NCBI GenBank assembly: GCA_020060235.1
Contig: JAGVAO010000067.1
Location: 1,257-65,256 of the forward strand
DNA: 64,000 nucleotides
DNA from: Anaerolineales bacterium
GTDB lineage: Bacteria; Chloroflexota; Anaerolineae; Anaerolineales; Villigracilaceae
Direction: 5' to 3'
How positions within the stretch are numbered: the first letter of the stretch is position 1; every line of letters starts with the position of its first letter. Of this stretch, positions 2,870 to 63,250 are shown in pieces. The translations under genes and the position numbers were made by a program. Below the pieces are notes generated by a model. It was not told the origin of the DNA and made no database searches. It worked only from the letters and a program-made list of their open reading frames with translations.

Positions 2870-3865
2870 ATGAAATACCATGCTGGGTATAATGAAGAAA
2901 TGGAATTTTTCCGCCGCCCTGTCCGCGTCCTGGTTCTCGCGCTTTTTATCCCGCTCCTGGCCTGCTCCGCGCCGGATTCGCCCTCCCCCGAGCCTGCTTC
3001 GCCGTTTCCTGAAATTTCATCTATGCCCCCGGCCAGTCCGCTCCCCTCGCCGACCAGCCCGGCCCTGCCCCTGCTGACCCCCGCTCCGCTGGCCCTCCAA
3101 CCTACGATTGTCATCCCGACCCCCACGCCGTTTGCCTACACGGTCAGGTCGGGCGACACCCTCAGCCAGATAGCCCTGCGCTACGGCCTGACGGTCGATG
3201 AACTGCTGGCCGCCAACCCCGGCGTCAGCACCATCCTGAGTATCGGGCAGGTCGTTCAAATCCCGTCCCGTCCGGCGTCGGTGGCCGAAGCCGTCCCTGC
3301 GCCCGCCGAATTGCTGGTCGGGCCGCTGCAATGCTTCCCCTCCGGTGCGGGCATGTGGTGCCTGGCCCTGGCCCAAAACCCGCACGCCGAGCCGGTAGAA
3401 AACATCACCGCCCAAATCTCCATCCTCAATCAAAACGGCGAACCGGAATCCGCCCTCGAAGCGCTGGCCCCGCTCAACATCCTGCCCGCCAGGGCCGGAT
3501 TGCCGGTAGCGGCCTTTTTCCCGTTACGCCCCTCCGGGCCTTTCGCCGCCCGTCTCGACATCCTGACCGCCTTCCTGCTTTCTCCCGGCGACCCGCGCTA
3601 CCTGCCGGTGCAGGTCAACAACCTGCTGACCCAGGTCTCGGCAGACGGGCTTTCAGCGCAGGTTAGCGGGCGGCTGGTGTTTTCCCAATCTGGCCCGCCT
3701 TCTGCTGAAATCTGGCTGGCTGGCGTGGCTTACGACGAATCCGGGCAGGTGGCCGGGTTCCGGCGCTGGCAGGCGGCCGGCGCGCCGCAGACTTTCTCGT
3801 TCGATGTTTACAGCCTGGGTCTGCCAATTGCGCGGGTCGAGGTAATTCCTGAAGCCCGGCCCTGA
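2870..3865 (+). CDS. LysM domain lipoprotein
   Basis: Contains a LysM motif (YTVRSGDTLSQIALRYGLTVDELLAANPGV) and a signal/lipobox-like LLAC|S. The true start may be the internal ATG at 2900 (MEFFRRPVRVLVLALFIPLLAC). Confidence 0.7.
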   Translation: MKYHAGYNEEMEFFRRPVRVLVLALFIPLLACSAPDSPSPEPASPFPEISSMPPASPLPSPTSPALPLLTPAPLALQPTIVIPTPTPFAYTVRSGDTLSQIALRYGLTVDELLAANPGVSTILSIGQVVQIPSRPASVAEAVPAPAELLVGPLQCFPSGAGMWCLALAQNPHAEPVENITAQISILNQNGEPESALEALAPLNILPARAGLPVAAFFPLRPSGPFAARLDILTAFLLSPGDPRYLPVQVNNLLTQVSADGLSAQVSGRLVFSQSGPPSAEIWLAGVAYDESGQVAGFRRWQAAGAPQTFSFDVYSLGLPIARVEVIPEARP

Positions 3866-3910
3866 TTTTTTGGCGTATAATCATCGCACCTTCCAGATTC
3901 TTTGCAATGT

Positions 3911-3939
3911 TTGACGCATAAATCCCTTGCATGTATAAT
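3911..3939 (+). promoter_or_regulatory. sigma70-type promoter for the 3981-18754 operon
   Basis: TTGACG (3911-3916), a 17-nt spacer, then TATAAT (3934-3939), about 42 nt upstream of the first start codon. Confidence 0.55.
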
Positions 3940-3980
3940 CAATCTATTCATTTTAATGCCCGCGTATATGGGCGCAGAGG

Positions 3981-4808
3981 ATGCTTATGGCTCTTCGGGG
4001 CAACTTGCGAGATTTTACAGTCACCCAGCTATTGAATCTGATAAACCTGGCCCATAAGACAGGCACTTTGGTTATCGAAGCCCCTAACGAAGTTGCCAAA
4101 GTCTCTTTTCGCGATGGAAAACTGTCCTACGCCCAAATCGGGCAGGACGACGGCCATCTCGCCTCCATCCTGCACAAGACCAGCCGTCTGACGACGGGGC
4201 AGTTGCGCGCCATTCAACTGCGTGCCACCCACGTTTCAGACAAAGAGCTGGGCTTGTTGCTGATAAACGCCGGGCATATGACCCAGGATGACATCCTGTC
4301 GTCCTTGCAGTCTTATTTCACCGATATGGTGCGGCGGCTGTTTACGTGGATAGAAGGCTCCTTTCGCTTCGAGAACGACATGATGCCGCCACCCGACCGC
4401 ATCACAGTGCGGCTCGATCTGGAAAACCTGATTATCGAAGGCGCGCGCCAATTGCGCGAGTTTGAGCAGTTGCAGGATGAAATTCCGAGCCTTGAGATGG
4501 CCCTGCGCTTTACCGAGCGTCCCGGCTCGAACCTGCAAAAGATGAACTTAAGCGTCGAAGAGTGGCGGGTGGTTTCTTATATCAGCCCCAAGAATACCAT
4601 CCAGCAAATCGCTTCGGCGGCCAAAATGGGCGATATGGAAATTCGCCGGATTGTTTATGGCCTTATTCAAGCGGGTCTGGTCGAAGTCGTGCGCCCGGAC
4701 GGGGCTGCGCCTGTTCAGGAAAGGGCGCGTCCAGCCATCCCGGTCCAGAACCGGGAAGAGCAGAAGTCTTTGGTCAACCGCCTGATTACGCGTATTCGCT
4801 CGATATAA
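3981..4808 (+). CDS. DUF4388 (PATAN-like) domain protein
   Basis: The N-terminus GNLRDFTVTQLLNLINLAHKTGTLVIE...VSFRDGKL is the signature of DUF4388. An alternative start at 3987 has a better GAGGA spacing. Confidence 0.7.
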   Translation: MLMALRGNLRDFTVTQLLNLINLAHKTGTLVIEAPNEVAKVSFRDGKLSYAQIGQDDGHLASILHKTSRLTTGQLRAIQLRATHVSDKELGLLLINAGHMTQDDILSSLQSYFTDMVRRLFTWIEGSFRFENDMMPPPDRITVRLDLENLIIEGARQLREFEQLQDEIPSLEMALRFTERPGSNLQKMNLSVEEWRVVSYISPKNTIQQIASAAKMGDMEIRRIVYGLIQAGLVEVVRPDGAAPVQERARPAIPVQNREEQKSLVNRLITRIRSI

Positions 4809-4830
4809 ATTTATTTGAGGATAAGTACTT

Positions 4831-5373
4831 ATGCAAACGGTCAAAATGGTCGTCACCGGCCCTTTCAGCGCTGGCAAAACGGAATTTATCCGCTCAGTGA
4901 GTGAAATTGACGTCGTCGCTACTGAACGCAAGATTTCATCTGACTCTGAAAGAGCGGTGAAACAGGCAACTACGGTGGCCATGGACTTTGGCCGTATCAC
5001 CGTGGATGAAGACCTGGTGCTCTACCTGTTTGGAACTCCCGGCCAGAAGCGTTTTGACTTCATGTGGGAAATCCTTTCCGAAGGGATGCTCGGGTTCATC
5101 GTCATGGTTGACAGCACCCGGCCAGAAACCTTCCGCGAAGCGCGCTCCATTCTCGAAACTTTCCGCGCTTACGCCCCCACGCCCTATGTCGTAGCCGCCA
5201 ACAAACAGGATGTTGATGATGCCTGGGAATTGGAAGATATGCGTCATGCCTTGCGCCTTGACGGCAAGGTAAAACTGCTTCCGTGCGTTGCCACCGATAA
5301 AGATACGGTCAAAAACGTCCTGCTCGAGTTGCTTTACAGCATCCTGGCAGAGATGGAAGGCAACGAAAAATAA
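4831..5373 (+). CDS. small Ras-like GTPase of the conservon CvnD / COG2229 type
   Basis: P-loop GPFSAGKTEF, switch II FGTPGQKRF and NKxD as AANKQD are all present. The core TTVAMDFGRI...LYLFGTPGQ is typical of CvnD-like 'ATP/GTP-binding proteins'. GAGGA RBS. Confidence 0.8.
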   Translation: MQTVKMVVTGPFSAGKTEFIRSVSEIDVVATERKISSDSERAVKQATTVAMDFGRITVDEDLVLYLFGTPGQKRFDFMWEILSEGMLGFIVMVDSTRPETFREARSILETFRAYAPTPYVVAANKQDVDDAWELEDMRHALRLDGKVKLLPCVATDKDTVKNVLLELLYSILAEMEGNEK

Positions 5374-31628: not shown

Positions 31629-31668
31629 CGAGAAGAAAAAAAGATGGAATAGTGGATGAGCAACTCCA

Positions 31669-31693
31669 CTGAAAACTGAAAACTGGAAACTGA
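31669..31693 (+). repeat. tandem heptamer CTGAAAA x3 (the third copy is CTGGAAA)
   Basis: 'ctgaaaactgaaaactggaaactga' ends 3 nt before the ATG at 31697. Confidence 0.6.
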
Positions 31694-34633: not shown

Positions 34634-34687
34634 GGAGTCCAGCGTCTCCTGACGTTGGATATCGAAAATCGGGAGATTTTCGACTCC
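34634..34687 (+). repeat. palindromic element, family B copy 1 (intergenic)
   Basis: Hairpin 'tcgaaaatc'-ggga-'gattttcga' (34662-34683), with outer arms 'ggagtc' (34634) and 'gactcc' (34682-34687). Confidence 0.7.
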
Positions 34688-34701
34688 AAAAGGATTATCT
34701 C

Positions 34702-37557
34702 ATGAAAAAAACACAACTTTCCTTAACCGTAAACGGCAACACCCACACCCTGGCCTCCATCCCCGGCGAAACGCTGGCGGATTTGTTGCGTAAACGCCTG
34801 CACCTGACCGGCACAAAAATCGGCTGCAACGAAGCCGAGTGCGGCGCGTGCACCGTCATCATGGACGGCGAACCGGTCTTGTCCTGCTCCACCCCGGCGG
34901 AACGCGCCGACGGCAAGACAATTTTGACGATTGAGGGGCTGGCAAAGACCCCCCTCGCCCCTGCGGGGCACTCCCCCCATTTTCAAGGAAAATGGGAGGA
35001 GACGGAGGGGGGCCTGCATCCTCTGCAGGAAGCCTTCGTCTCCCACGGCGCAGTCCAGTGCGGGTTCTGCATCCCCGGCCAGATTATGACATCGTATGCC
35101 CTGCTCGAAAAGAACCCCAACCCGACCTCCGACGACATCCGCCACGCGCTCAAGGATACCATCTGCCGCTGTGCTGGATACCCGACGATTGAGAACGCGA
35201 TTTTAGCCGCCGCCGAATCGCTCCGCACTGGGCAGCCGGTTGAAGGGCCGGACATCCCGGATTCTGCGCTGGAGGGACAAACCGTCGGCAAGTTGAAAGT
35301 CCGCCCGGACGGGGTCGAGAAAGTCACCGGCCACGCGATTTACACCGATGACCTGATTTTCGATAACATGCTCTTCGCGGCGGTCAAGCGCGCGGGCGTG
35401 CCTCACGCTTTTGTCCGCAAAATTGACGTGGAAAAAGCCCGCAGCGCCCCCGGCGTCGTCTCCGTGCTGACCGCCGAAGATGTCCCCGGCGAAAACATTC
35501 ACGGACTGGTGACGCTCGACTGGCCGGTCATGGTCGGTATCGACGAACGCGTCCGCTATGTCGGTGACGCGATAGCGATTGTAGCCGCCGAAAGCCAGGA
35601 AGCGGCTAAAGCGGCGGTTGAACTTATCGAAGTTGAATTCGACCTCCAGCCGGTTGTTGGCAACGCAGTCCAGGCGCGGGAGGAGGGCCAGCCGCAAATC
35701 CACGAAAAGGGCAACCTGCTCAAGCACATCAAAGTCCGCAAGGGCGACCCGGAAATCGGGTTTGCCGAAGCAGACATCGTGCTGGAACACACCTTCCACA
35801 CCCCGGCCCATGACCACCTGTTCATCGAACCGGAATGTAGCATCGCCGTTCCCGAGGGCGAACGCATGTTAATTTACGTCGGCTCGCAAATTCCGTACCA
35901 GGATAGAACGCAAGTCGCCCGCGCCCTGGGCTGGGACGAGGGCCGGGTGCGTATCCTCGGCCAGTTGATGGGCGGCGGCTTCGGCGGCAAGGAAGACATC
36001 GCCGGGCAAATACACGCCGCGCTGCTGGCAAATGCCACCGGGCGGCCCGTCAAATTGCTCTTTGACCGCCACGAGAGCCTGCTGGTGCATCCCAAGCGCC
36101 ACGCTACCCAAATCAAGGTCAAGATTGGCGCGAAGAAGGACGGTACCCTGGTCGCTGCCAAAACCGAACTATACGGCGACACCGGCGCGTATGCCTCGCT
36201 GGGCGAGAAAGTGCTGACCCGCGCCACGACCCACTCGGCTGGCCCGTACATCATCCCGCACGTCCACGCCGACTGCTACGCCATGTACACCAACAATCCC
36301 CCGGCGGGCGCGTTTCGTGGGTTTGGCGTGCTGCAATCGGCCTTTGCGATTGAAACCGTGCTGGACATGTTGGCCGAAAAACTCGGCCTCGACCGCATCG
36401 AACTGCGCCGCAAGAACGCTCTGCGCGTCGGCACCGAAACCAGCACCGGGCAGGTGATGCGCGAGAGCGTCGGGCTGGTGGAGTGTATTGACAAGGTGTC
36501 AGGTACCATGTGTCAGGTGTCAGGTTTGTCGAGAGACGAATTGTTCCAGGCACGGCGGGTTCCCGACGCTGAACACCTCGTCCGCGCCTGGGGTTTTGCT
36601 TCCGGCTTCAAGAACACTGGTCTGGGCGGCGGCGCGGACGATTGCGCCGGGGCCGAAGTCGAACTCTATGAGGATGGCCTGTTCGAGGTGCGCTCCTCCT
36701 CCGCTGAACTCGGCCAGGGTCTCGTCACCGTCATGCGCATGATTGTGGCCGAGGAACTGTCCGTCCCGGCGGAGCAGGTCAAAGTCCTGGTGATGGACAC
36801 CGACCTGACCCCCAACGGCGGCCCGACCACCGCCTCGCGCCAGACCTACGTTACCGGCAATGCTTCAAGATTGGCGGCCAAGACCCTGCGCGAAGCCATC
36901 ACAGCGACCCTGGCCGAAAAATACGACCAGGCTCCCGATAAAATCCGCTTCGAGGACGGCAACGTGCGCGTCAATGGGCATAGCCTGACCATGCAGGAAG
37001 TCTACAGCGAGATGAAAGCCGCCGGGAAAGACCCGCGCGTCTTGTACGATTACCACGCCCCGGCCACGACCCCGCTCGGCACGCCCGGGGATATGCACGT
37101 CGCTTTCTCGTTCGCCTCGCAGGCCGCCGAGGTGGAAGTCAACACCCTGACCGGCGAAGTAAAAGTCCTGCGCGTCATCGCTGCCAATGATGTTGGCCAC
37201 GCCATCAACCCGCTCGGCTTGCGCGGACAAATCGAAGGCGGCGTCGTCATGGGCGTCGGCCATGCCCTGCTCGAAAACTTCATCACCAAAGACGGCATGG
37301 TCGTCACCGACCGCATGTCGCGCTACCGCGTCCCGTCCATCGTCCACACGCCCGAAATCATCCCGATTGTGGTCGAAGACCCGGCGTCAGACGGACCTTA
37401 CGGCGCGAAGGGCGTCGGCGAAATCGTCCTGATTCCGACCCCGCCCGCCATCACCAACGCCATCTACAATGCGGTCGGCGTACGATTCGACACCCTGCCG
37501 GTCGACCAGGAGAAATTGCTCTGGGCGATGCGGAATTCATCAGGCAGCGCAGGATAA
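34702..37557 (+). CDS. xanthine dehydrogenase / aldehyde oxidase family protein: [2Fe-2S] small subunit fused to the molybdopterin-binding large subunit
   Basis: N-terminal ferredoxin motifs GCNEAECGACTV and QCGFCIPG...CRCAGY, followed by an approximately 780-aa MoCo domain (GGGFGGKE, ...GPYGAKGVGE). Confidence 0.85.
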   Translation: MKKTQLSLTVNGNTHTLASIPGETLADLLRKRLHLTGTKIGCNEAECGACTVIMDGEPVLSCSTPAERADGKTILTIEGLAKTPLAPAGHSPHFQGKWEETEGGLHPLQEAFVSHGAVQCGFCIPGQIMTSYALLEKNPNPTSDDIRHALKDTICRCAGYPTIENAILAAAESLRTGQPVEGPDIPDSALEGQTVGKLKVRPDGVEKVTGHAIYTDDLIFDNMLFAAVKRAGVPHAFVRKIDVEKARSAPGVVSVLTAEDVPGENIHGLVTLDWPVMVGIDERVRYVGDAIAIVAAESQEAAKAAVELIEVEFDLQPVVGNAVQAREEGQPQIHEKGNLLKHIKVRKGDPEIGFAEADIVLEHTFHTPAHDHLFIEPECSIAVPEGERMLIYVGSQIPYQDRTQVARALGWDEGRVRILGQLMGGGFGGKEDIAGQIHAALLANATGRPVKLLFDRHESLLVHPKRHATQIKVKIGAKKDGTLVAAKTELYGDTGAYASLGEKVLTRATTHSAGPYIIPHVHADCYAMYTNNPPAGAFRGFGVLQSAFAIETVLDMLAEKLGLDRIELRRKNALRVGTETSTGQVMRESVGLVECIDKVSGTMCQVSGLSRDELFQARRVPDAEHLVRAWGFASGFKNTGLGGGADDCAGAEVELYEDGLFEVRSSSAELGQGLVTVMRMIVAEELSVPAEQVKVLVMDTDLTPNGGPTTASRQTYVTGNASRLAAKTLREAITATLAEKYDQAPDKIRFEDGNVRVNGHSLTMQEVYSEMKAAGKDPRVLYDYHAPATTPLGTPGDMHVAFSFASQAAEVEVNTLTGEVKVLRVIAANDVGHAINPLGLRGQIEGGVVMGVGHALLENFITKDGMVVTDRMSRYRVPSIVHTPEIIPIVVEDPASDGPYGAKGVGEIVLIPTPPAITNAIYNAVGVRFDTLPVDQEKLLWAMRNSSGSAG
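34949..35012 (+). repeat. nested-palindrome segment inside the 2Fe-2S domain coding sequence
   Basis: Outer arms 'cccccctc'/'gagggggg' enclose two inner hairpins, 'gcccc-tgc-ggggc' and 'cccattttc-aag-gaaaatggg'. The segment encodes an extra TPLAPAGHSPHFQGKWEETEGG between IEGL and LHPLQ. Confidence 0.55.
36496..36524 (+). repeat. TGTCAGG-repeat element, family A copy 1 (in-frame in the MoCo subunit)
   Basis: 'gtgtcaggtaccatgtgtcaggtgtcagg' is 27/29 identical to 45731-45759. It encodes VSGTMCQVSG. Confidence 0.8.
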
Positions 37558-42577: not shown

Positions 42578-43519
42578 ATGTCCATCACGTATTCAATCAT
42601 TGCCCCGATATATAACGAATTCGAGAATATTCCCGCGCTCTGGCAGCGTGTGAGCCAGGTGATGGATTCGACCGGCGAGAATTGGGAACTCATCCTGGTT
42701 GATGACGGTTCGAGCGATGGCTCGACGGAGCGCATCCGTGAACTGGCGGCTGGCGAGCCGCGCGTGCGACCCGTGATTTTTGCGCGCAATTTCGGTCACC
42801 AGATTGCCGTCACCGCCGGGCTGGATTATGCGCGCGGCAAGGCAATTGTGGTCATCGATGCTGACCTGCAAGACCCGCCGGAGGTCATTCTCGAACTGGC
42901 TGAAAAGTGGAAGGAAGGCTACGAGGTGGTTTATGCGGTGCGTTCGGAGCGCGAGGGGGAGAGTTGGTTTAAACTGTTTACGGCTTCGATGTTTTACCGC
43001 CTGATTTACCGTATTACGGATGTCAAAATTCCGCTCGATACCGGGGATTTCCGCCTGATTGACCGCAAGGTGGTCGATGTGATGAATTCGATGCGCGAGC
43101 GTCACCGCTTCCTGCGCGGCATGTCGGCCTGGATTGGTTTTAAGCAGGTTGGGGTGGAATATAAACGCGCGGCGCGGGTGGCCGGGGTGACAAAATACCC
43201 GTTCAAAAAGATGCTGCGCCTGGCGCTGAATGCCATTACCGGTTTTTCATATTTCCCCTTGCAGGTGGCAACTTATTTTGGCTTCATCGCCGCCGGGTTG
43301 GCAATTCTGGCCATCCCTGTTGTGACAGTGCTGCGCCTGGTGGGTTCGCATTTCTTCGAGGGGCAGACGACGACCCTGATTTCGGTCTTGTTCCTGGGTG
43401 GTGTGCAGTTGATTTCGCTCGGCATACTGGGCGAGTACATCGGGCGGATTTATGATGAGGTCAAGGGCCGCCCGCTGTATGTGGTCAGTGAAGCGCCAGA
43501 TTCGATGGGCGGTGAGTAG
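42578..43519 (+). CDS. family 2 glycosyltransferase (polyprenyl-phosphate sugar transferase, GtrB/DPM1-like)
   Basis: IIAPIYNE...[12 protein letters not shown]...[12 protein letters not shown] plus two C-terminal TM helices. Confidence 0.85.
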
Positions 43520-43520
43520 T

Positions 43521-43597
43521 AATCGTTAATTCGGAGAGAAGTTTGGGAATACCCGAATTCGATACTCGATTTTCGAATACTCGAATAACGAATAGCG
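43521..43597 (+). repeat. CGAAT-unit repeat block, family D copy 1 (intergenic)
   Basis: 'aatcgttaattcgg...cccgaattcgatactcgattttcgaatactcgaataacgaatagcg' lies between convergent genes. Confidence 0.55.
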
Positions 43598-43600
43598 CTC

Positions 43601-44395
43601 TTACGGCAATCCCTTAAATCCCTGTTCGCGCCAGGTGCTGAAACGCTGCCAGCCGATGTCCGAGAGCATCAGGGTCATACCAAAGCCAATTAGAACGCAG
43701 GTGATGAAGAAAAAGGCCACTTCTTCGATGGGCAGGATGCCGAAGAAGTTGATGCCCAGCGTCTGGTCTTTGGAGATGTTCCAGGTGGTGGCGCTCAGGG
43801 CGACGATGTCGGTTAGCGAGAGATACAGTCCGGGGATAAAGATGGACGTAAAAACCACTTTGCGGTAATGCCACAAAATATCTGCCCCGAACAGGAATTG
43901 GGGAATGATGGGTGGCAGCGCCCAGAAGAAGATGATGCCCAGGTAGTTCCACTCATCACCGGCGAAGAAAAATTGGAAGGTAAAGAAGACCCAGGCGGCA
44001 ATGAGTATTCCGGTTGACAAGTAAACCAGTTTTGGGCTGCGCTGGAAGGTTTCAGGAGCGGGCAGTCTCAGCCGCCGAGCCAGGAACCACCACCACAAAC
44101 CAACCAAGATGGTTTCGACGATAAAGAACGTGTATTCTTCAATCGGAACATAGCCAATCGTAATGCCGGTGACCAGGTCCGGGTTGTAGTACCAGACGCC
44201 GGTGGCGACCAGGTAGTTGTCCCAGGGGGTGGTGTAAACCAACGCGATGAGAACATGCACGGCGATAATTAGCGGCACTTTTTTTGCGTCGAAACCGGGA
44301 GTGGGGCGTCCGGCGCGCTTGTCCAGCCAGGTGATGACCAGCAGGACAAGAATCGGGATGATGACGAAGTAAGCGAGAAAGGCGAAGTAGGTCAT
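43601..44395 (-). CDS. lycopene cyclase, fused CrtYc/CrtYd-type (two lycopene-cyclase domains)
   Basis: A duplicated membrane domain, each half carrying the PxEE motif (VPIEEYTFF and LPIEEVAFF). Confidence 0.75.
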   Translation of the reverse strand: MTYFAFLAYFVIIPILVLLVITWLDKRAGRPTPGFDAKKVPLIIAVHVLIALVYTTPWDNYLVATGVWYYNPDLVTGITIGYVPIEEYTFFIVETILVGLWWWFLARRLRLPAPETFQRSPKLVYLSTGILIAAWVFFTFQFFFAGDEWNYLGIIFFWALPPIIPQFLFGADILWHYRKVVFTSIFIPGLYLSLTDIVALSATTWNISKDQTLGINFFGILPIEEVAFFFITCVLIGFGMTLMLSDIGWQRFSTWREQGFKGLP

Positions 44396-45744
44396 GAGGA
44401 TTTTAGATTGGATGATAGGCGGCGGGTAATTTTCATCAACACACCCGGGCGCGGTTCAAGGGTTGCGCCCATATGCGGGTGGATGTTTTCTGTCAAAAGT
44501 TGAAAATCGAAAGTCCTTAAAAGCTGGCTGACCACAATCCGCGCTTCGGCCTGGCCAAAGGCGGCCCCGATGCAGGCGCGCGGCCCGCCGCCGAAGGGGA
44601 TGAAGCTCATCGGGGGCGTTGCTTGCCTCGTGCTTTTTTGCGAGGTGCGGGCTTGCGAGAATCGTTCAGGCTGGAACTGGTCTGGGTTTTCCCAGATGGT
44701 CGGGTCACGCTGGGTCAGGTAAATCGAGTAGAACATGCGCGAACCGGCCGGGATGGTTTTACCCTCGCCAAAAGCCACATCCTGCGCCGCGATGCGGTTG
44801 CCGATGTGGATGGGCGGATATAGGCGCAAGGTTTCCTTGATGACCTGGTCGAGCAGGGGCGGGGTCTGGCCGGGTTCGCTCGCGTCCAGTTCGCGGACGA
44901 GGCGGGCGTGGATGTCCGGGTGCTGGCCGAGCAGGGCGAAAACCCAGGCCAGCAGCGCGGTGGAAGTGTCGTGCCCGGCAATCAGCATGGTCAGCATTTG
45001 GTCACGAATGATTTTGTCGGTCAGGTTGGCGTCGATGAGGTGTTGAAGCAAATCGTTATTCGGGGCTTCGGTATTCGATGAATCGGCGTCCGAATATCGA
45101 ACATCGAATATCGCTTTTCGCCGTTCTGCAATGATTTCATACAGGTAGTCATCGAGGGCTTTCAGGCGTTTTTTATAACCAGGGCGCGGGATGCGCCGCC
45201 ATAAAATCCATGCGCCGGGGGAGATGTAGTCGATGGCTTTCAAGATGGGCGTCCAGATGCGCGGGATGTCGTCCCAGGCATCGCGGCTGAAGAGGGCCTG
45301 GATGATAATCAGCAGGGCGATTTTGCGGCCTTCGACGAGCATATCCACTACCTGCCCATCCTGCCAGGTTGCGCTGACCCGTTTGGTTTGCTGGCGCATC
45401 ATTTCGGCGTAGCCGGGCAACTTGCCTGGGTGCAGCGACGGTTCCATGAGTTTGCGGTAATGGTCGTGTTCCTCTCCATCGGTGACGAGCACGCCGCGGT
45501 CGAGCAGGTCTGTGACCGGGTCGTTGTTGCGCCACTGGAACTTGTCACGCTCGGTGACGAGTACCTTGCGGGCGGCTTCGGGGCCAAAGACGATGTAGGG
45601 CTTGAATCCCGGCAGAGGCACCTGGAAGAAGCGCCCGACCCGCTCGGCCATAACGCGCAGCGGCCCGAGCGGGGGTTTTTCTGCGAGAAAGGATTTCAGG
45701 ACGGCGAGGCCGAGTTGGGGGTCGGAGGATGTGTCAGGTTTCAT
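44392..45744 (-). CDS. cytochrome P450, probable carotenoid-modifying monooxygenase by context
   Basis: I-helix [14 protein letters not shown] (ExxR) and heme loop [10 protein letters not shown]. The stop overlaps the lycopene cyclase start. Confidence 0.85.
45051..45113 (+). repeat. CGAAT-unit repeat block, family D copy 2 (in-frame inside the P450 gene)
   Basis: 'aatcgttattcgg...ggtattcgatgaatcggcgtccgaatatcgaacatcgaatatcg' encodes ...[20 protein letters not shown].... Confidence 0.5.
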
Positions 45745-45759
45745 GTGTCAGGTGTCAGG
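45731..45759 (+). repeat. TGTCAGG-repeat element, family A copy 2 (spans the GNAT stop and the P450 start)
   Basis: 'gtgtcaggtttcatgtgtcaggtgtcagg'. On the minus strand it supplies the TGA of the GNAT gene, the 10-nt spacer, and ATG AAA CCT GAC AC of the P450. Confidence 0.8.
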
Positions 45760-46276
45760 CGAGGGTTTTGGTCAGGTAAAGCACCAGGTCGTCATCGACG
45801 GGGATGGATTGGCCGTACTGAACGGGCTGGCCGCGCGAGAACAGTCCGCGCCCGTCGGGGATGTAACCGCGTTTGGCGTACATGCGCTGGGCCGAGCCGT
45901 AGTCGGCGGTCATGCCGACGCCCAGGCCAACCACTGCGCTTCGGGCGGCAACCCGTTTTTCGGCTTCGTCCATCAGGGACTCGCCGATGCCCTGGCGGCG
46001 GAATTTGGGCAGGACGTTGAAATCGACAATTTCAGGGATGTTTTGCTCGCGGAAAGGCGGGTAGTGCGACTGCCAGCAGATGGTGACGTAACCAGCGAAG
46101 TCCAAAATCGGGAGATTTTGGACTCCAGAATGAGCGACCAGGACGACCCGCTGGCCTGCTTCCTGCTCCGCGAGATATTTCTCATACTGCGAGGCGGGTT
46201 TATCCCAGCCCAGTTCAGAAAAAGCAGCAGCGATGGAGTTAATGTCGGTGGGTTCGATGAGGCGAATGGTAGGCAT
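45755..46276 (-). CDS. GNAT-family N-acetyltransferase
   Basis: 173 aa with the acetyl-CoA motif FRRQGIGESLMDEAEKRV. Confidence 0.8.
   Translation of the reverse strand: MPTIRLIEPTDINSIAAAFSELGWDKPASQYEKYLAEQEAGQRVVLVAHSGVQNLPILDFAGYVTICWQSHYPPFREQNIPEIVDFNVLPKFRRQGIGESLMDEAEKRVAARSAVVGLGVGMTADYGSAQRMYAKRGYIPDGRGLFSRGQPVQYGQSIPVDDDLVLYLTKTLA
46097..46126 (+). repeat. palindromic element, family B copy 2 (in-frame inside the GNAT gene)
   Basis: 'gaagtccaaaatc'-ggga-'gattttggactcc' pairs at 12 of 13 positions. It encodes GVQNLPILDF. Confidence 0.75.
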
Positions 46277-46295: not shown

Positions 46296-47747
46296 TCATT
46301 CGGGTTTTTGGCTTGTGGCTTTTGATGAATTGTAGGCTTTCAGCGTTCGTTCCCGCGCCTCGGCGCGGTCAACGATGGGTTGGGCCGGGTAGCCAGGGAC
46401 GCGGATGCCCTTTTCCCAGCAGGGGGCGTGGATTTCGGGGGTGGAGAGATGGGCGAGTTCGGGAACCCATTTGCGGATGTAGGCGCCGTCCGGGTCGAAT
46501 TTGGCCGATTGCAGCACCGGGTTGAAGATACGGAAGTAGGGCGCGGCATCGGTTCCGGTTCCAGCTGTCCACTGCCAGCCGCCGTTGTTGGCGGCCGGGT
46601 CGCCGTCGAGCAGGTTGTCCATAAACCAACGTTCGCCCCATTGCCAGTTAATCAGCAAATCCTTGACGAGAAAGGAGGCGACAATCATGCGCGCCCGGTT
46701 GTGCATCCAGCCGGTTTCGCGCAGTTGGCGCATGGCTGCGTCCACGACCGGGACGCCGGTGCGGCCTTCCTTCCAGGCGGCAAAATCGGCTTCATCGTCC
46801 CGCCAGGGGATGTTTTGCAGGGCCGGGTTGAATGCGCGCCTGGCAACGTGCGGGAAGTGGTAGAGGATAGATATGTAGAATTCGCGCCAGATGAGTTCGT
46901 TCAACCATCTTTGCGAGCCTTTTTCGTTGAACGTGTTCAACGCGGTTTCAGCCGCCTGGCGCATGGAAACCATGCCGAAGCGGATATAGGGCGAGAGGGC
47001 GGAAGTGCCGTCGAGGTCGAGGCGGTTGCGGGTTTCGTGGTAACTGGTAATTGGTGATTGAGCAAATTGAGCTAGGCGGCGTTGGGCTTCGGCTTCACCG
47101 GGAGGAAAATGGTCAACGGATGACAGCGGATGCGCGGAGTTGTCAACGGATAGGAACGGATGCACGGATTTTGCCAGCGGATGAAGGGGCGGATACTTCG
47201 GCAGGCTCGGTGCAAGTTGCGCGGATATCTCAACGGATGGGGGCAGGTTGATGGGGGGGAAATGTTCCGGAGCTGGGAGCGGGTTTAGGCTCGATGGGAG
47301 CAGGGATTTCCAGGTTTTCGCAAAAGGCGTGAAAACGGTGTACGGCTTGCCGTCTGGTTTGCGAACGGCTTCCGGGTGATGAACGGTCTGCCCGTGGACA
47401 AGGGTCAGCGGTAGGGATTGAATCAGTTGTTCGTCGCGGGCGCGGGCGTAGGGGGTGTAATCTTGCTCGGCAAAAATGGCCTGCGCGCCAGTTTCGATGA
47501 GCAGGTTGAGCAATTCAATCTCCGGTTTGCCGCGTCGAATGACCAGAGAAGAGCCGCGTTTTTGCAATTCCTGGTCGAGTTCGTCCAGGCCGCCAAAGAG
47601 GAAGGCTTGCCGCCGGGCGGGAGTGCGTTCGAGCAGGTGCGGGTCGAGGATAAAGACGGGGACCACCGCTCCCTGCTTGAGAGCGGCGCGCAAGGCCGGG
47701 TTATCCGAAAGGCGAAGGTCGCGGCGAATCCACCACAGGGAGGTCAT
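46296..47747 (-). CDS. phr: deoxyribodipyrimidine photolyase (cryptochrome/photolyase family)
   Basis: LWWIRRDLRLSDNPAL, WREFY, GWMHNRARMIVASFL, and W..G..D-type FAD-domain motifs. Confidence 0.9.
   Translation of the reverse strand: MTSLWWIRRDLRLSDNPALRAALKQGAVVPVFILDPHLLERTPARRQAFLFGGLDELDQELQKRGSSLVIRRGKPEIELLNLLIETGAQAIFAEQDYTPYARARDEQLIQSLPLTLVHGQTVHHPEAVRKPDGKPYTVFTPFAKTWKSLLPSSLNPLPAPEHFPPINLPPSVEISAQLAPSLPKYPPLHPLAKSVHPFLSVDNSAHPLSSVDHFPPGEAEAQRRLAQFAQSPITSYHETRNRLDLDGTSALSPYIRFGMVSMRQAAETALNTFNEKGSQRWLNELIWREFYISILYHFPHVARRAFNPALQNIPWRDDEADFAAWKEGRTGVPVVDAAMRQLRETGWMHNRARMIVASFLVKDLLINWQWGERWFMDNLLDGDPAANNGGWQWTAGTGTDAAPYFRIFNPVLQSAKFDPDGAYIRKWVPELAHLSTPEIHAPCWEKGIRVPGYPAQPIVDRAEARERTLKAYNSSKATSQKPE
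47112..47243 (+). repeat. 'caacggatg / gcggatgcgcgga' repeat block, family C copy 1 (in-frame in the photolyase inter-domain linker)
   Basis: 'gtcaacggatgacagcggatgcgcggagttgtcaacggataggaacggatgcacgg...' encodes ...HPLAKSVHPFLSVDNSAHPLSSVDH. Confidence 0.8.
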
Positions 47748-61198: not shown

Positions 61199-63250
61199 TT
61201 AACCCGGGTTGCAGCCCAACTCCTCCAGCCATTCGGCGGGCAGGGGTTGCCGCTGGCTGGCGCGCTCCCAGGCGGCGCAAAACGTTTTTCGCAGGAAGGG
61301 ACGTTCAGAGACGGCCTGCTTCGTGCGCATAGCCGCTTTTTGTGTGTCGCCGTTTGTTGCGCCCGCTTCAACGAAGGGCAGCCATTCGAGCGGGTCGGAT
61401 GGAGAATAGCCGAATGCGGCAGCCTCGGTATCGAGACGGGCGATTTCGTCCCATTGTTGGAATTGGCGGGCCAGCTCGGCGCGAGCATAGTAGTAGCACC
61501 ATCCGCGCGAGGGTTCGGGGCCGAAAACGGACTCGGCAACGGACTCTGTCACGGAATCACGGATGGAAGCAGACTTGGTAATTAAATCCAGGCTTGAGAG
61601 GGCAATGGCCTGACGCATGCGCTCGGACAGGTTGGGGTAGGCGTCTTCGTCGCCGGGGGAGAGGATGCGCACGCAGCCACGCAGGGGGGCCAGGAAGGCG
61701 ATGGATTGGGATGTGTTGCCGCTGAAATGGGCCGGGCGGTAGGGAAATTCGATGGGGGTATCCGGGTCGAGGGCCAGGCGGCGGGGGCGCATGTCGACGC
61801 CGAAGACGAGGTAGGGAATTTGATGCGAATCCAGGTCGGGGGCATACATCCAGTTCAGCGGGGCGGTCAGGATGTAGTCGGTTTCGTAGTCGATTTCGAC
61901 GGTGTCAGTAAACAGGACGGTCCCCGGTTGGATGGCGGGCATGCGCCAGGTGAATTGCCAGTAAATGTCGCGCTGGCGGTCCCAGTCGCGGCGAAAGATG
62001 TTGGCGTTGTAGAACTGCTGTCCGACGCCGAGGGCGACGATGAGGCTGGCGAGTATCAACCGCCAGCGTCCGTTTCGGGCGACCAGTTCGATTATCCCAA
62101 CGGCGAACAGGCTGGCGGCCAGCATCAGCGAGACGTTGAATCGGTCGTTGCTGGATTGCAGGGTGAGCGGCAGGCCGGCGGCCCAGGAGGGGATGCGTCC
62201 GAGGATGATGCCGATGATGCCGATGAGGAGTAGGTCAACGGATGGGGGAGCGGATGCGCGGAGGTTATCAACGGATGGAATCGGATGCGCGGATGGGGGG
62301 GCGGACTCTGTAAAAGTTGGCAGGCGGCTGAGGTAGAAGGTCAGGGCGGCGAAGGTGACGGCGATGAGCGCGAGGGTGAGCAAGCCCGAGGGGGTGGGGA
62401 GGGCTTCGGTAACGAGAGACAGGATTTGGGCGTAGGCAACGAATCCCGCTTTGTAGACGGCTTCGGCGGCGGTGGCGAAAAAGCCATTTAAAAGGTTGGA
62501 GGCCGGGGCTTCGACATCCAGCGCAACGTCATAATTTGCGTACAGGCCGGAGCGGTAGTAGAAAAACAGCCAGGCGGCGTTGAGCGACCAGACCAGGATG
62601 TAAGGAATCCACAGTTTAAGGGCCTGCCATGCGCGGGGCAGGAGGGGCTGCGCGGCCAGCATGGAGAACAGAAATAGGAAGCGCAGGGGTTCGATGGTCA
62701 GGAAGTATTCGGTCGGGAAGACACCCAGAACGAGAAGCAGCAGCGCAATGACGGTGCGCGGACGAAAACGGGCCGGGCTATGGAAGGCCCAGCCGGTTGC
62801 GCCAAAGGACAGGATGTAGAACAGCAGGGGAATGAGTTCCTGGTTGATGTGGGTGAAGGCGACCCAATGTTGCGAGTAGCCGGGATAGACCAGAAAGATG
62901 AGCGCGGCGGTCAGGGTCTGGCGCGGGCGGTCAGGCCAAATGCTGCGCAAGGCCCACCAGACCGAAAGGGTGAGCGCGAAGCGGATGAAAAGGGCGAAGG
63001 TTTGCCAGGCGAGCGGGGTTTCGGGCAGCAGGCTGGTGGTGAATTGGAAAATGGGGCCAAGGAAGGGACGCACGCGCAGGAAGGAACGCAGGAAACTCTC
63101 AGGGCCGAAAAAGTGCGCGCCCCAGGCGAAGGGCCAGTCGTCCCAGTAGAAGCCGGTACGGGTGAGTAGCAGTCCGTAGCCGAGAACGACCAGGACGGCA
63201 AAGGCAAGCGGAATTGTTTTGGGCGAGAATTGGAATCGGTTTTGCGGCAT
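61199..63250 (-). CDS. large polytopic membrane protein, possible GT-C-fold glycosyltransferase
   Basis: 683 aa with about 12 TM helices, an acidic first-loop motif (FYWDDWPFAW), and a soluble C-terminal domain. The family assignment is tentative. Confidence 0.4.
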   Translation of the reverse strand: MPQNRFQFSPKTIPLAFAVLVVLGYGLLLTRTGFYWDDWPFAWGAHFFGPESFLRSFLRVRPFLGPIFQFTTSLLPETPLAWQTFALFIRFALTLSVWWALRSIWPDRPRQTLTAALIFLVYPGYSQHWVAFTHINQELIPLLFYILSFGATGWAFHSPARFRPRTVIALLLLVLGVFPTEYFLTIEPLRFLFLFSMLAAQPLLPRAWQALKLWIPYILVWSLNAAWLFFYYRSGLYANYDVALDVEAPASNLLNGFFATAAEAVYKAGFVAYAQILSLVTEALPTPSGLLTLALIAVTFAALTFYLSRLPTFTESAPPSAHPIPSVDNLRASAPPSVDLLLIGIIGIILGRIPSWAAGLPLTLQSSNDRFNVSLMLAASLFAVGIIELVARNGRWRLILASLIVALGVGQQFYNANIFRRDWDRQRDIYWQFTWRMPAIQPGTVLFTDTVEIDYETDYILTAPLNWMYAPDLDSHQIPYLVFGVDMRPRRLALDPDTPIEFPYRPAHFSGNTSQSIAFLAPLRGCVRILSPGDEDAYPNLSERMRQAIALSSLDLITKSASIRDSVTESVAESVFGPEPSRGWCYYYARAELARQFQQWDEIARLDTEAAAFGYSPSDPLEWLPFVEAGATNGDTQKAAMRTKQAVSERPFLRKTFCAAWERASQRQPLPAEWLEELGCNPG
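62234..62308 (+). repeat. 'caacggatg / gcggatgcgcgga' repeat block, family C copy 2 (in-frame in the membrane protein)
   Basis: 'gtcaacggatgggggagcggatgcgcggaggttatcaacggatggaatcggatgcgcggatggggg' encodes PPSAHPIPSVDNLRASAPPSVD. Confidence 0.8.

Follow-up and report, generated by a model that had tools for sequence, protein, structure and literature searches.

Interspersed ATCCG-core tandem arrays of Anaerolineales lie between genes and, in frame, within unrelated genes

Two protein-coding genes in the window, the whole 64-kb stretch of Anaerolineales DNA analysed here, have a short repeat in common. One of them encodes a photolyase and the other a conserved membrane protein (Table 1). The shared element consists of two tandem units of ~30 nt, which follow the pattern TCCGYGCATCCG-N5-8-ATCCGTTGA and are present both in the photolyase linker and in the membrane protein. 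Both DNA strings quoted in a preliminary description of this DNA are found exactly where it had placed them, and the quoted peptides, ...SVHPFLSVDNSAHPLSSVDH... in the photolyase and ...PPSAHPIPSVDNLRASAPPSVD... in the membrane protein, are correct. Its coordinates led to both loci, but their extents had to be redrawn: the photolyase repeat comprises a main array and a separate partial unit, and the membrane-protein array has the limits given in Table 1. In addition to the two loci named there, a third, degenerate array is present in the membrane-protein gene. The description had also proposed that the membrane-protein DNA is partly read one frame over, with small indels restoring the frame, and this is what we see: one extra nucleotide (+1) before the second unit and two (+2) within it cause TCCGCGCATCCGCT to be read L-R-A-S-A, after which the frame is restored.

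Table 1. Host genes and repeat features of the window (positions counted from its first nucleotide).
Feature	Positions	Strand	Description
Deoxyribodipyrimidine photolyase, 483 aa (host gene 1)	46296-47747	-	Pfam PF00875, PF03441
Main photolyase array	47113-47194	-	Interdomain linker; encodes ...YPPLHPLAKSVHPFLSVDNSAHPLSSVDH
Photolyase canonical unit	47143-47168	-	TCCGTGCATCCGTTCCTATCCGTTGA on coding strand
Photolyase canonical unit	47113-47138	-	TCCGCGCATCCGCTGTCATCCGTTGA on coding strand
Degenerate ATCCGC sub-repeats, preceding the two canonical photolyase units	47169-47194	-	
Separate partial unit CCCATCCGTTGAGATATCCGCGCAA	47221-47239	-	Same photolyase linker, further upstream; encodes PPSVEISAQ
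Conserved 683-aa multi-pass membrane protein (host gene 2)	61199-63250	-	No Pfam family
Membrane-protein array, hypervariable site 1	62235-62294	-	Two units
Membrane-protein unit	62268-62293	-	TCCGCGCATCCGATTCCATCCGTTGA on coding strand
Membrane-protein second unit	62235-62262	-	TCCGCGCATCCGCTCCCCCATCCGTTGA on coding strand; read one frame over (LRASA)
Degenerate array TCCGTGAT TCCGTGACAGAG TCCGTTGCCGAG TCCGTTTTC	61527-61564	-	Membrane-protein hypervariable site 2; encodes SIRDSVTESVAESV

The motif ATCCGTTGA occurs five times in the 64 kb, always on the minus strand and always within these two genes. A repeat search groups a 26-nt family (D9) of 81-88% identity in the window, and TRF detects a 30-nt period at 47112-47184. 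A relaxed census of the window returned four clusters of cores compared with none in 20 shuffles, while the composite pattern occurs four times against ~3e-7 occurrences expected from a uniform-base estimate. The similarity between the photolyase and the membrane-protein DNA is confirmed as real and beyond chance.

The two Pfam domains of the photolyase, spanning residues 3-160 and 281-473, flank the array. Matches of this protein among solved structures include the photolyase 1owl (E = 2.4e-97), and in the alignment with 1owl the array residues correspond to gaps located directly before the conserved PGE. An AlphaFold model of the photolyase was set aside as evidence (mean pLDDT 62.5; residues 179-218 form low-confidence coil, and the C-terminal domain is just as poor in places) and the 1owl alignment was used instead. 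Photolyase orthologues range from 445 to 512 aa in length, and at some of the orthologous sites the array has decayed, for example to SVSLSAYPLQQSV. The membrane protein has 1360 homologues at E <= 1e-20, and those with a named source all belong to Anaerolineae/Chloroflexota MAGs. Its orthologues are 657-830 aa long with two variable sites, the second of which exceeds 100 aa in one of them (P0132) and reads as NLRASVHPLTSVENIRASV in another (P0131).

An exact-pattern scan over species-representative genomes places the repeat unit in 19 Chloroflexota/Anaerolineales MAGs, with 40 loci in all. Four loci outside the lineage were also returned, none of them with surrounding ATCCG clusters, and this number is close to the chance expectation (2-3 matches estimated). 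The 40 loci plus the window hold ~60 arrays in total, whose density is very uneven: two genes carry them in the 64-kb window, whereas six arrays are present on a single 5.5-kb contig. One true array sits in an integrase-bearing mobile region. Phage records gave no array match, and the single plasmid match, a pure (GCATCCGT)n microsatellite on a Rhizobium Ti plasmid, was judged coincidental. All loci were obtained by scanning for the DNA pattern, the peptide-based route being unproductive. A word-indexed census with a synthetic sense-frame profile gave no candidates, and the 31-aa peptide of the window, used in an exhaustive HMMER scan, matched P0241 alone, a high-GC repeat protein that is unrelated; both queries were short and of low complexity, and the power of these searches was low.

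Analysis of the arrays reveals that the unit is modular. It is built of ATCCG cores in three spacing classes of 8 nt (ATCCGTGC), 10-12 nt (ATCCGTT followed by variable nucleotides) and 13 nt (ATCCGTTGAnnAC), usually in that order, which results in a unit of 31-33 nt; a 45-nt variant contains an extra 13-mer. The mean core spacing is ~10.5 nt, i.e. one helical turn. This three-part unit, the order of its sub-repeats and the GTGC and TTGA extensions recur across the 40 loci, and 35 arrays have at least five cores compared with none in shuffles. Units within an array are contiguous and their variable parts are only 3-5 nt long, and the unique-spacer criterion of CRISPR-type arrays is not met. Folding of five arrays against shuffles gave z-scores of -0.31, 0.15, 2.68, 1.64 and 0.18 and no evidence of hairpins. 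Neither the arrays nor their flanks gave any inverted repeats, and the four arrays inspected for terminal inverted repeats showed none. Rfam gave no match overlapping the arrays of L006, L017 or L024, even at E <= 1. No target-site duplications are visible at array boundaries, although among the filled and empty sites compared no pair is close enough for the junctions to be read exactly.

Placement was determined for 60 arrays, of which 30 are intergenic, 13 lie at gene edges, one at a 5' edge and 16 within genes, so that ~73% are intergenic or at gene edges and ~27% are in frame in real genes. Long frames over the arrays of L001 and L009 look spurious (Arg-rich wrong frames), and these arrays were counted as intergenic. 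In-frame hosts include the photolyase, the 683-aa membrane protein, TrpF, PurF, PurK, PurL, a PDDEXK_3::PurM fusion and a rhamnosidase, all except the membrane protein verified by Pfam. The arrays lie between domains in the photolyase, PurF, the PDDEXK_3::PurM fusion and the rhamnosidase, and within the ATP-grasp and PurS domain matches in PurK and PurL, respectively. In seven loci the trpD-trpC operon junction is made of array, and in the purF-purD-purM cluster of L017 every spacer contains one. Besides upstream regions, convergent intergenic regions also hold arrays. In L020, L025, L035 and L042 the unit occupies the 5' end of paralogous genes, which were identified by eye as TIR-like; these copies have been co-duplicated with the genes and are not independent insertions.

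The cores are read in all six orientation and phase classes (84, 14 and 38 cores in the three sense phases and 19, 33 and 10 in the three antisense phases), the commonest reading being Ser-Val or Ser-Ala in sense phase 0. As judged from the sequence, TGA is present in one sense frame only and in no antisense frame. Periods of coding units are multiples of 3 in 11/14 cases versus 6/13 for non-coding units, a trend which is not significant (p = 0.12). The element is a feature of the DNA and not of the protein, since both orientations and every reading frame are used. This agrees with the preliminary description, which had suggested from two loci that the DNA and not the peptide is conserved in loops or linkers of unrelated proteins, and had asked whether further copies exist; the 40 loci and six readings described above answer on both counts. 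An ancestral protein feature, named there as the outcome that would refute the idea, is not seen in the orthologues, as distant orthologues of both the photolyase and the membrane protein are without the insert. The inference of a DNA element is therefore supported, and colonisation of coding regions in frame does occur within real genes. However, coding DNA is only the minority habitat, and the behaviour is that of a hypervariable minisatellite and not of a fixed-size insertion.

Copy number at one site varies between relatives from none, or one, to more than 12 units; variable copy number is seen at the photolyase site, both membrane-protein sites, TrpF and PurF. Related species differ at the same site in copy number as well as in unit variant, related populations differ in unit number, and some arrays have been homogenised into lineage-specific units of 42 and 45 nt. 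The ATCCG core persists even across species in which the units have otherwise diverged.

A further variable site is a loop of TrpF, a protein expanded to 351 aa in L075. Empty sites have a native loop in common, reading K-A-F-R-G-I-P. Filled sites carry sense, antisense or mixed arrays and are interleaved with the empty ones on the tree, and a split with 95% support has sense arrays on either side. In the same loop, antisense arrays encode TDARM and NGWG while sense arrays encode SVHPF. These sense, antisense and mixed states, together with nodes supported at 95% and 79%, show that one TrpF loop has been colonised several times and in both orientations. The tree is poorly resolved at many nodes, and polyphyly of three antisense arrays (L061, L063 and L067) was not retained in the absence of bootstrap support. 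Identity among these three arrays is 89-92%, while the genes as a whole agree at 72-76% and their third codon positions at 50-55%. One clade has the array in place of the native loop, at a nearly unchanged overall length. A native ATCCGT seed at this site was considered and rejected; the ATC CGT of K-A-I-R-L-S belongs to the array, empty sites reading K-A-F-R-G-I-P, and the native loop contains only weak proto-cores with one mismatch, such as AATGGAT. Judging from the insert-free distant orthologues and from the pattern of empty and filled TrpF sites, the arrays have been gained and are not ancestral. It is unlikely that they are assembly artefacts, because independent assemblies show them again, in frame, at orthologous sites.

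We consider it probable, although far from settled, that the copies in the window are members of an Anaerolineales-wide set of interspersed, non-palindromic, minisatellite-like arrays, which are copied to new sites and resized by slippage. According to this reading, at least one complete unit would be copied into each new site, a step which is inferred and whose mechanism is not established. The likeliest route would be template switching from an existing array, mediated by recombination or repair, and short ATCCG-like microhomology might help. The arrays could then grow, shrink and become homogenised through replication slippage or unequal exchange, while selection would purge those coding insertions that are not a multiple of 3 or that fall in structured parts of the protein. 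Persistence within genes may be attributed to stop-free frames, as five of the six reading frames are without a stop codon. No cellular function would be required, and the visible effect would be new or resized protein linkers and intergenic spacers. However, the copying step has never been observed, and no candidate enzyme was identified in the fragments examined. Three observations also fit this reading poorly. Array DNA can be more conserved than the host gene, and the core persists across diverged units, which constraint on the motif, whether through function or drive, explains no less well than neutral selfish DNA does. The ~10.5-nt mean core spacing is as expected of a protein-binding array and counts against the copied-and-resized arrays we favour, and the near-equal-length loop replacement in one TrpF clade is not predicted by simple insertion.

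It is conceivable, though we regard it as unlikely, that the ATCCG cores are instead cooperative sites for a lineage-specific DNA-binding protein (nucleoid-associated, segregation or regulatory), kept by selection wherever they are tolerated, protein linkers included. The helical spacing, the three fixed classes in fixed order, the core retained in diverged units and array DNA that is better conserved than the host gene's third codon positions would all follow, and many arrays adjoin gene starts or operon junctions. The lack of an orientation requirement is also as expected for a site in duplex DNA. However, binding sites under selection are hard to reconcile with the extreme instability of copy number at one site among relatives, with decay at some orthologous sites such as that of the photolyase, with the very uneven density, or with the occurrence of arrays between convergent genes and within housekeeping enzymes that are unrelated to each other. 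There are no binding data, and we know of no protein that binds the arrays.

Molecular drive directed by the motif, without a classical mobile element, appears more improbable still. In one version, a nickase, transposase footprint or staggered cut at ATCCG re-duplicates 8-13 nt including its own site, and arrays build up locally from proto-sites; in the other, a bias of uptake or gene conversion favours motif-bearing alleles, as with DNA uptake sequences. The discrete, duplication-sized spacings (8, 10-12 and 13) that always include the core, the locus- and species-specific spacers around an invariant core conserved order-wide, and the failure to find terminal inverted repeats or hairpins or to see target-site duplications are in line with such a drive. 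So is the near-equal-length TrpF replacement in a loop with one-mismatch proto-cores, but that resemblance is weak and might be due to chance. One objection is the recurrence of one three-part unit, with its order and GTGC/TTGA extensions, at 40 loci. Such a shared higher-order unit would not be expected from in-place growth at different seeds and needs either copying of at least 26 nt or selection on the whole unit. The uptake version is further weakened by the presence of only four clusters in the 64-kb window. Uptake sequences are single motifs present roughly once per kb, and we are not aware of natural competence having been reported for this lineage.

A bolder proposal, to which we give limited credence, is that the arrays stem not from a conventional mobile element but from an undescribed motif-directed propagation in Anaerolineales, which recognises the ATCCG-core unit and copies or duplicates it, seeding and regrowing arrays at permissive sites in either orientation. 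Candidates might be a site-specific nicking or duplication activity, templated repair, or a conversion or uptake bias. If true, the motif would be kept above the level of gene conservation, and an order-wide generator of protein linkers and intergenic spacers would exist. That the segments are ancestral, flexible Ser/Val/Pro/Ala-rich linkers, alike in DNA through shared codon preferences and local slippage, is scarcely credible: inserts do lie in linkers and loops and Ser-Val or Ser-Ala is the commonest reading, but the same DNA is read in six classes, non-coding DNA and gene edges account for ~73% of arrays, one TrpF loop holds unrelated sense and antisense peptides, and distant orthologues are without the segments.

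No description of the array family was found in the searchable literature, which matches the earlier remark that no description was known for this lineage. Among the closest known systems are the mycobacterial interspersed repetitive units (MIRUs), minisatellite-like VNTR loci of M. tuberculosis that are described as tandem repeats of 46-101 bp at 41 loci (PMC3914561). They share with the ATCCG arrays a direct tandem organisation in units of tens of nucleotides, a spread over many loci and a copy number that differs among strains or species. In operons, MIRUs reportedly occupy intergenic regions, with small reading frames that overlap the stop and start codons on either side (Supply et al. 1997, 2000), a placement resembling that of the arrays at trpD-trpC and in the pur spacers of L017. 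To our knowledge MIRUs have no described palindrome or transposase signature and no known mechanism of dispersal; the ATCCG element is likewise without a detected signature of either kind. However, it comes from a different phylum (Chloroflexota) and is not claimed as a member of the MIRU sequence family, its 31-33-nt unit is shorter and built from three ATCCG-core sub-repeats, and the family spans a whole order and not one species complex. Furthermore, about a quarter of the ATCCG arrays are in frame in conserved enzymes, in both orientations, which is not a MIRU feature as far as we know.

Rickettsia palindromic elements (RPEs) are MITE-like palindromes of ~150 bp (about 100-150) with a conserved peptide per family (PMC10969869). 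They too are found in frame in unrelated metabolic genes, in a manner compatible with function, and also between genes (PMC10969869). The likeness to RPEs suggested in the preliminary description holds for in-frame colonisation but not for structure: the ATCCG element is a direct tandem repeat without hairpin (z -0.3 to +2.7), inverted repeats or TIRs, it has no single conserved peptide and uses six frames, and its 31-33-nt unit (or 45-nt variant) occurs in tandem arrays of 1 to >12, in contrast to single-copy insertion. On this comparison, the element would be MIRU-like in kind and RPE-like for in-frame colonisation only, and would belong to neither family.

MITEs, REP/REPIN and BIMEs are short, non-autonomous, interspersed and mostly intergenic repeats which are sometimes clustered (PMC3116915; PMC10969869). 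The ATCCG arrays are also short interspersed repeats with a mostly intergenic location, but those elements are defined by palindromes or TIRs, target-site duplications and a cognate transposase (RAYT or IS), and the arrays show no palindrome or TIRs. Uptake sequences (USS/DUS) and the cyanobacterial HIP1 are lineage-specific motifs found both within and outside genes, whatever the frame, and tolerated preferentially where the protein is under weak constraint. The abundance of HIP1 is reported in PMC5861425. Unlike the ATCCG motif, which is essentially confined to sparse, clustered tandem arrays, these are single short motifs of very high and fairly even density. Small dispersed repeats (SDRs) of cyanobacteria are mentioned in PMC3116915. 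Neither these nor the STRR heptamer repeats correspond to the ATCCG arrays in sequence or lineage. SDRs and STRRs are very small dispersed or tandem repeats of a filamentous lineage without obvious transposition machinery, and we know of no modular three-part unit or frequent in-frame residence in housekeeping enzymes among them.

In-frame colonisation of bacterial housekeeping genes by repeats is best known from RPEs. The same outcome is found here in a free-living, environmentally abundant phylum and arises from a structurally different source, a direct, modular, non-palindromic tandem repeat. How a repeat without transposon hallmarks spreads and yet keeps its core order-wide is the question that this family poses. 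The arrays also amount to a natural experiment on conserved enzymes, whose loops and linkers accept arbitrary peptides from six reading frames. They inflate and vary protein length (445-512 aa in the photolyase, 657-830 aa in the membrane protein, up to 351 aa in TrpF), and can join adjacent reading frames into one, as in PDDEXK_3::PurM. The arrays could serve as VNTR-type markers of Anaerolineales strains in metagenomes. They may also break metagenome assemblies; the contig of L005 ends inside one. Gene calling at starts and stops is confused by them. Arrays that adjoin gene starts either have a separate AAGGA-type ribosome-binding site after them or lack one, an observation on a promoter or ribosome-binding role made from sequence alone.

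The photolyase gene and the gene of a 683-aa membrane protein had been described as sharing near-identical tandem DNA, inserted in frame and read partly in different frames. Re-translation of both genes agrees with the translations claimed, both sequences lie where they had been placed (table below) and the observation as a whole is confirmed. The partial change of frame is real as well: in the second membrane-protein unit one additional base before the unit and two inside it move TCCGCGCATCCGCT to the L-R-A-S-A frame, after which the frame is restored. ATCCGTTGA occurs five times in the 64 kb, only on the minus strand and only in the photolyase and membrane-protein genes. These two genes are ORFs 46296-47747 and 61199-63250, both coded on that strand. 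A 26-nt repeat family (D9) was detected in the window by repeat search and a 30-nt period by TRF, and a relaxed core census gave four core clusters versus none in 20 shuffles. Similarity within the window is not due to chance.

Repeat units and further arrays of the ATCCG family in the window
Feature	Position	Strand	Sequence	Remark
Photolyase unit 1	47143-47168	minus (coding)	TCCGTGCATCCGTTCCTATCCGTTGA	
Photolyase unit 2	47113-47138	minus (coding)	TCCGCGCATCCGCTGTCATCCGTTGA	after unit 1
Membrane-protein unit 1	62268-62293	minus (coding)	TCCGCGCATCCGATTCCATCCGTTGA	
Membrane-protein unit 2	62235-62262	minus (coding)	TCCGCGCATCCGCTCCCCCATCCGTTGA	after unit 1
Partial unit, photolyase gene	47221-47239			relaxed core census
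Third array, degenerate, in membrane-protein gene	61527-61564			relaxed core census

Arrays consist of direct, head-to-tail repeats with a modular build. Their cores are TCCG, mostly with A in front, and fall into spacing classes of 8 nt (ATCCGTGC), 10-12 nt (ATCCGTT followed by 3-5 variable, C-rich bases) and 13 nt (ATCCGTTGAnnAC). These sub-repeats most frequently follow each other in that order to form a unit of 31-33 nt, and a 45-nt variant contains a second 13-mer. Five or more cores are present in 35 arrays versus none in shuffled sequence. Arrays show no hairpin potential (z-scores of -0.3 to +2.7 versus shuffles), no inverted repeats inside or around them and no overlapping Rfam match. 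Only one frame of the motif strand contains a stop codon (TGA in GTTGA), and all three frames of the complementary strand are open.

The repeat is a lineage-wide family and an order-wide phenomenon. A scan of 596 Gb, one genome per species, for TCCGYGCATCCG-N5-9-ATCCGTTGA returned 44 loci. Forty of these, well beyond the two genes of the window, belong to 19 MAGs labelled Anaerolineales, Anaerolinea, Chloroflexi, Chloroflexota or unclassified 'bacterium'; 4-7 contigs come from each of several MAGs, and 11 exact matches lie on a single 5.5-kb contig. The four off-lineage loci (three Gammaproteobacteria, one Vicinamibacterales) have no surrounding ATCCG clustering and fit chance, because about 2-3 matches are expected in the whole collection from a uniform-base estimate. 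One more true array lies on an IMG/VR contig that also carries two integrases and a DarB-like/methyltransferase gene, and phage records gave no match to the pattern. The sole plasmid match is an unrelated pure octamer microsatellite of about 27 perfect GCATCCGT octamers (L129 1500-1720; Rhizobium sp. L51/94 plasmid pTiL51_94, NZ_CP072145.1, about 223050-223270). This octamer exactly matches the 8-nt sub-repeat class of the Anaerolineales unit, the higher-order structure of that unit is absent, and we judge the match to be coincidental. A T-DNA-border-like sequence (gacaggatatattgg) directly adjoins this run, which lies in an unannotated stretch, and an IS701-family transposase gene is ~230 bp away.

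Arrays reside in frame in several Pfam-verified hosts. In photolyase (the window and the matched loci L007, L046 and L047) the array is located between PF00875 and PF03441, and in PurF of four MAGs 2-6 antisense units lie between the glutaminase and PRTase domains. PurK has an antisense array, PurL has one within its PurS-like module, alpha-L-rhamnosidase between the Ig-like and N-terminal domains and TrpF in a loop, while in PDDEXK_3::PurM the array connects both parts in continuous frame. Alignment with the solved A. nidulans enzyme (1owl) places the array residues of the window photolyase (about 190-213) in gaps at the end of the interdomain loop, directly before the conserved PGE which opens the helical domain; the AlphaFold model is too weak overall to add much. 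Cores use all six orientation/phase classes (codon phases 84/14/38 in sense and 19/33/10 in antisense), single arrays often mix several phases, and the encoded peptides range from SVHPFPSVD and IRASV to TDARM and NGWG. This is direct proof that the shared entity is the nucleotide sequence and not a peptide. The claims of conservation at the DNA level and of in-frame residence in loops or linkers of unrelated proteins both hold.

At one locus, L017, a single 553-codon frame (3555-5216) contains a PD-(D/E)XK nuclease-family domain (PF13366, residues 30-141) and PurM (AIRS, AIRS_C), joined via an array at 4148-4210; a second array (3476-3590) overlaps the start of the frame. Being free of stop codons, the array could have joined an inserted PDDEXK_3 gene to purM; alternatively, it may obscure where purM truly starts. 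The photolyase gene of two relatives, L046 and L047, sits in a cluster related to light and UV damage (L046 14882-15685; L046/L047 8422-9350), with UvdE endonuclease, a short-chain dehydrogenase and a DICT-domain protein upstream and, in L046, a heliorhodopsin gene and lycopene cyclase downstream.

A simple codon-usage-scored gene call placed 30 of 60 arrays in intergenic DNA, 13 over a gene edge, one within 30 codons of a start and 16 inside genes. Given that non-coding DNA typically accounts for no more than roughly one tenth of bacterial genomes in general, arrays are strongly biased toward spacers. The spacers are co-directional, divergent and convergent, with either orientation of the array relative to adjacent genes. 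Several arrays constitute operon junctions. In L017 they fill the purF-purD, purD-(PDDEXK_3::purM) and purM-downstream spacers. In seven TrpF loci the trpD gene ends within an array, which supplies its last codons and stop, and the final sub-repeat of the array directly adjoins the trpC ATG. The junction array also occurs at loci whose TrpF loop is empty.

Arrays inside genes and at junctions concentrate in genes of purine biosynthesis (purF, purD-purM spacers, purK, purL; L017, L026, L030, L037, L038) and in the trp operon (TrpF loop and trpD-trpC junction; L013, L014, L019, L048-L076), and multiple arrays within a few kb are common (five in L011, six in L017). This clustering could reflect short-range spread or regional permissiveness, and is confounded by the very uneven array density between MAGs. 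A single unit also forms the start of paralogous genes (L020 1869-1908; L025 91-129, 343-381 and 1621-1660; L035; L042), where ATG ACA TCC GTT GAC AAC encodes MTSVDN, followed by KRPLKVFLCHAHADRD. By eye this looks like a TIR-domain N-terminus. The unit is duplicated along with gene fragments, including an upstream promoter-like TATAAT/TTGACA stretch.

In photolyase orthologues of about 60-70% identity the linker is short and lacks the insert, and at least one unit is present in the window photolyase clade. In individual lineages the array has decayed (e.g. SVSLSAYPLQQSV) or grown (proteins of 504 and 512 aa); the grown arrays are homogenised to their own 45-nt and 42-nt units with TCCG(C/T)T cores kept. 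Both inserts are absent from membrane-protein orthologues aligned at ~55% identity; the close clade (657 to 830 aa) has expanded independently at two sites, and the expanded orthologue P0132 has a 42-nt homogenised unit.

Among metagenome loci, most TrpF orthologues have the native loop KAFRGIPENINGFARSESPAFLVDA. Some have sense arrays, which in L075 lengthen the protein by as many as ~130 residues. In L061, L063 and L067 an antisense array of roughly 40 nt replaces the loop with almost no change in length; L019 has an antisense array unlike these, and L068 has adjacent antisense and sense sub-arrays. The empty site is ancestral, because a lost array cannot regenerate the shared native loop. 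Filled and empty sites are interleaved in the loop-masked tree, sense arrays fall either side of a split with 95% support, and the sense-array locus L048 clusters with loci of empty site (79% support). We infer that the loop was colonised independently at least four times, although many nodes are unresolved. One MAG contains two related populations (flanks 88-95% identical), and these differ in unit number at this site. The three antisense arrays of L061, L063 and L067 are 89-92% identical in their DNA, versus 72-76% for the genes overall and 50-55% at third positions.

Our analysis thus reveals a dispersed, modular, non-palindromic repeat family defined at the DNA level. Its copy number is hypervariable, its gain recurrent and its placement mostly intergenic, and linkers and loops tolerate it in frame. 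The means of its spread and of its sequence maintenance remain unexplained. From the recurrence of the complex three-part unit at 40 loci we infer that at least one whole unit would have to be copied between sites. The favoured route is template switching from existing arrays, mediated by recombination or repair, since terminal inverted repeats and hairpins are absent and no target-site duplications were seen. Subsequent slippage or unequal exchange would account for within-array homogenisation. Purifying selection would then keep only multiples of three at permissive positions (unit periods are multiples of three in 11 of 14 coding versus 6 of 13 non-coding arrays, a trend only), and the scarcity of stop codons would make coding residence possible. 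It cannot be excluded that arrays function as binding sites, or that a motif-directed drive operates: core conservation exceeds the expectation for neutral DNA, the mean core spacing is one helical turn, and the native TrpF loop has been replaced almost length-neutrally in one clade. Classical transposition is argued against by the same absences which favour template switching. Independent local growth, we infer, cannot explain the recurrence of the three-part unit.

The ATCCG repeat belongs with interspersed bacterial repeats able to live in frame inside genes. Closest in working are the mycobacterial MIRUs, reportedly placed at operon junctions in work ascribed to Supply et al. (1997 and 2000). 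MIRUs are likewise interspersed direct tandem repeats of variable copy number (PMC3914561). The likeness to Rickettsia palindromic elements (RPEs) proposed in the preliminary description extends to in-frame colonisation (PMC10969869), but not to the palindrome, as ATCCG arrays have neither hairpin nor inverted repeats. The arrays fail the tests which define RPEs, MITEs and REPINs (palindrome, terminal inverted repeats and a single conserved peptide are absent, and unit size differs), the density test of uptake sequences and, having no spacers, that of CRISPR arrays. An inserted DNA element is supported, with the correction that it behaves as a minisatellite; its colonisation of coding regions stands as far as in-frame residence is concerned, but its main habitat is intergenic. 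No description of this behaviour in the lineage was found in full-text literature by motif, lineage or behaviour, as had been supposed, although coverage was incomplete and this is only absence of evidence. What makes the family noteworthy is its order-wide occurrence, its residence in housekeeping enzymes in six reading frames and the recurrent colonisation of the same loop.

Other repeats are present in the window. The heptamer repeat CATGTGTCAGGTGTCAGG, (GTGTCAG)n, is a second small repeat with behaviour like that of the ATCCG arrays: at 36505-36525 it lies inside the coding ORF 34702-37557 and is read T-M-C-Q-V-S-G, at 45741-45760 it lies immediately 5' of the start codon of ORF 44392-45744 (minus strand), and a dimer occurs in one related metagenome locus (L048 877-890). 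A 33-nt repeat in two copies of 88% identity (34662-34694 and 46101-46133) forms a 9-bp hairpin, TCGAAAATC-GGGA-GATTTTCGA, with a compensatory C/G change in the second copy (TCCAAAATC...GATTTTGGA). The first copy is located just upstream of the AAAGGA ribosome-binding site and ATG of ORF 34702 and the second downstream of the gene for photolyase. This repeat may represent a small structured element with a regulatory or terminator-like role. Three further repeats, namely (ACTGAAA)x3.7 (31668-31693, intergenic, immediately upstream of ORF 31697), (GAATACTC)-like x5.6 (43547-43587, intergenic, between ORFs 42578-43519 and 43601-44395) and (CGAATAT)x3.3 (45091-45113, inside ORF 44392-45744), together suggest a general short-tandem-repeat propensity of the genome.
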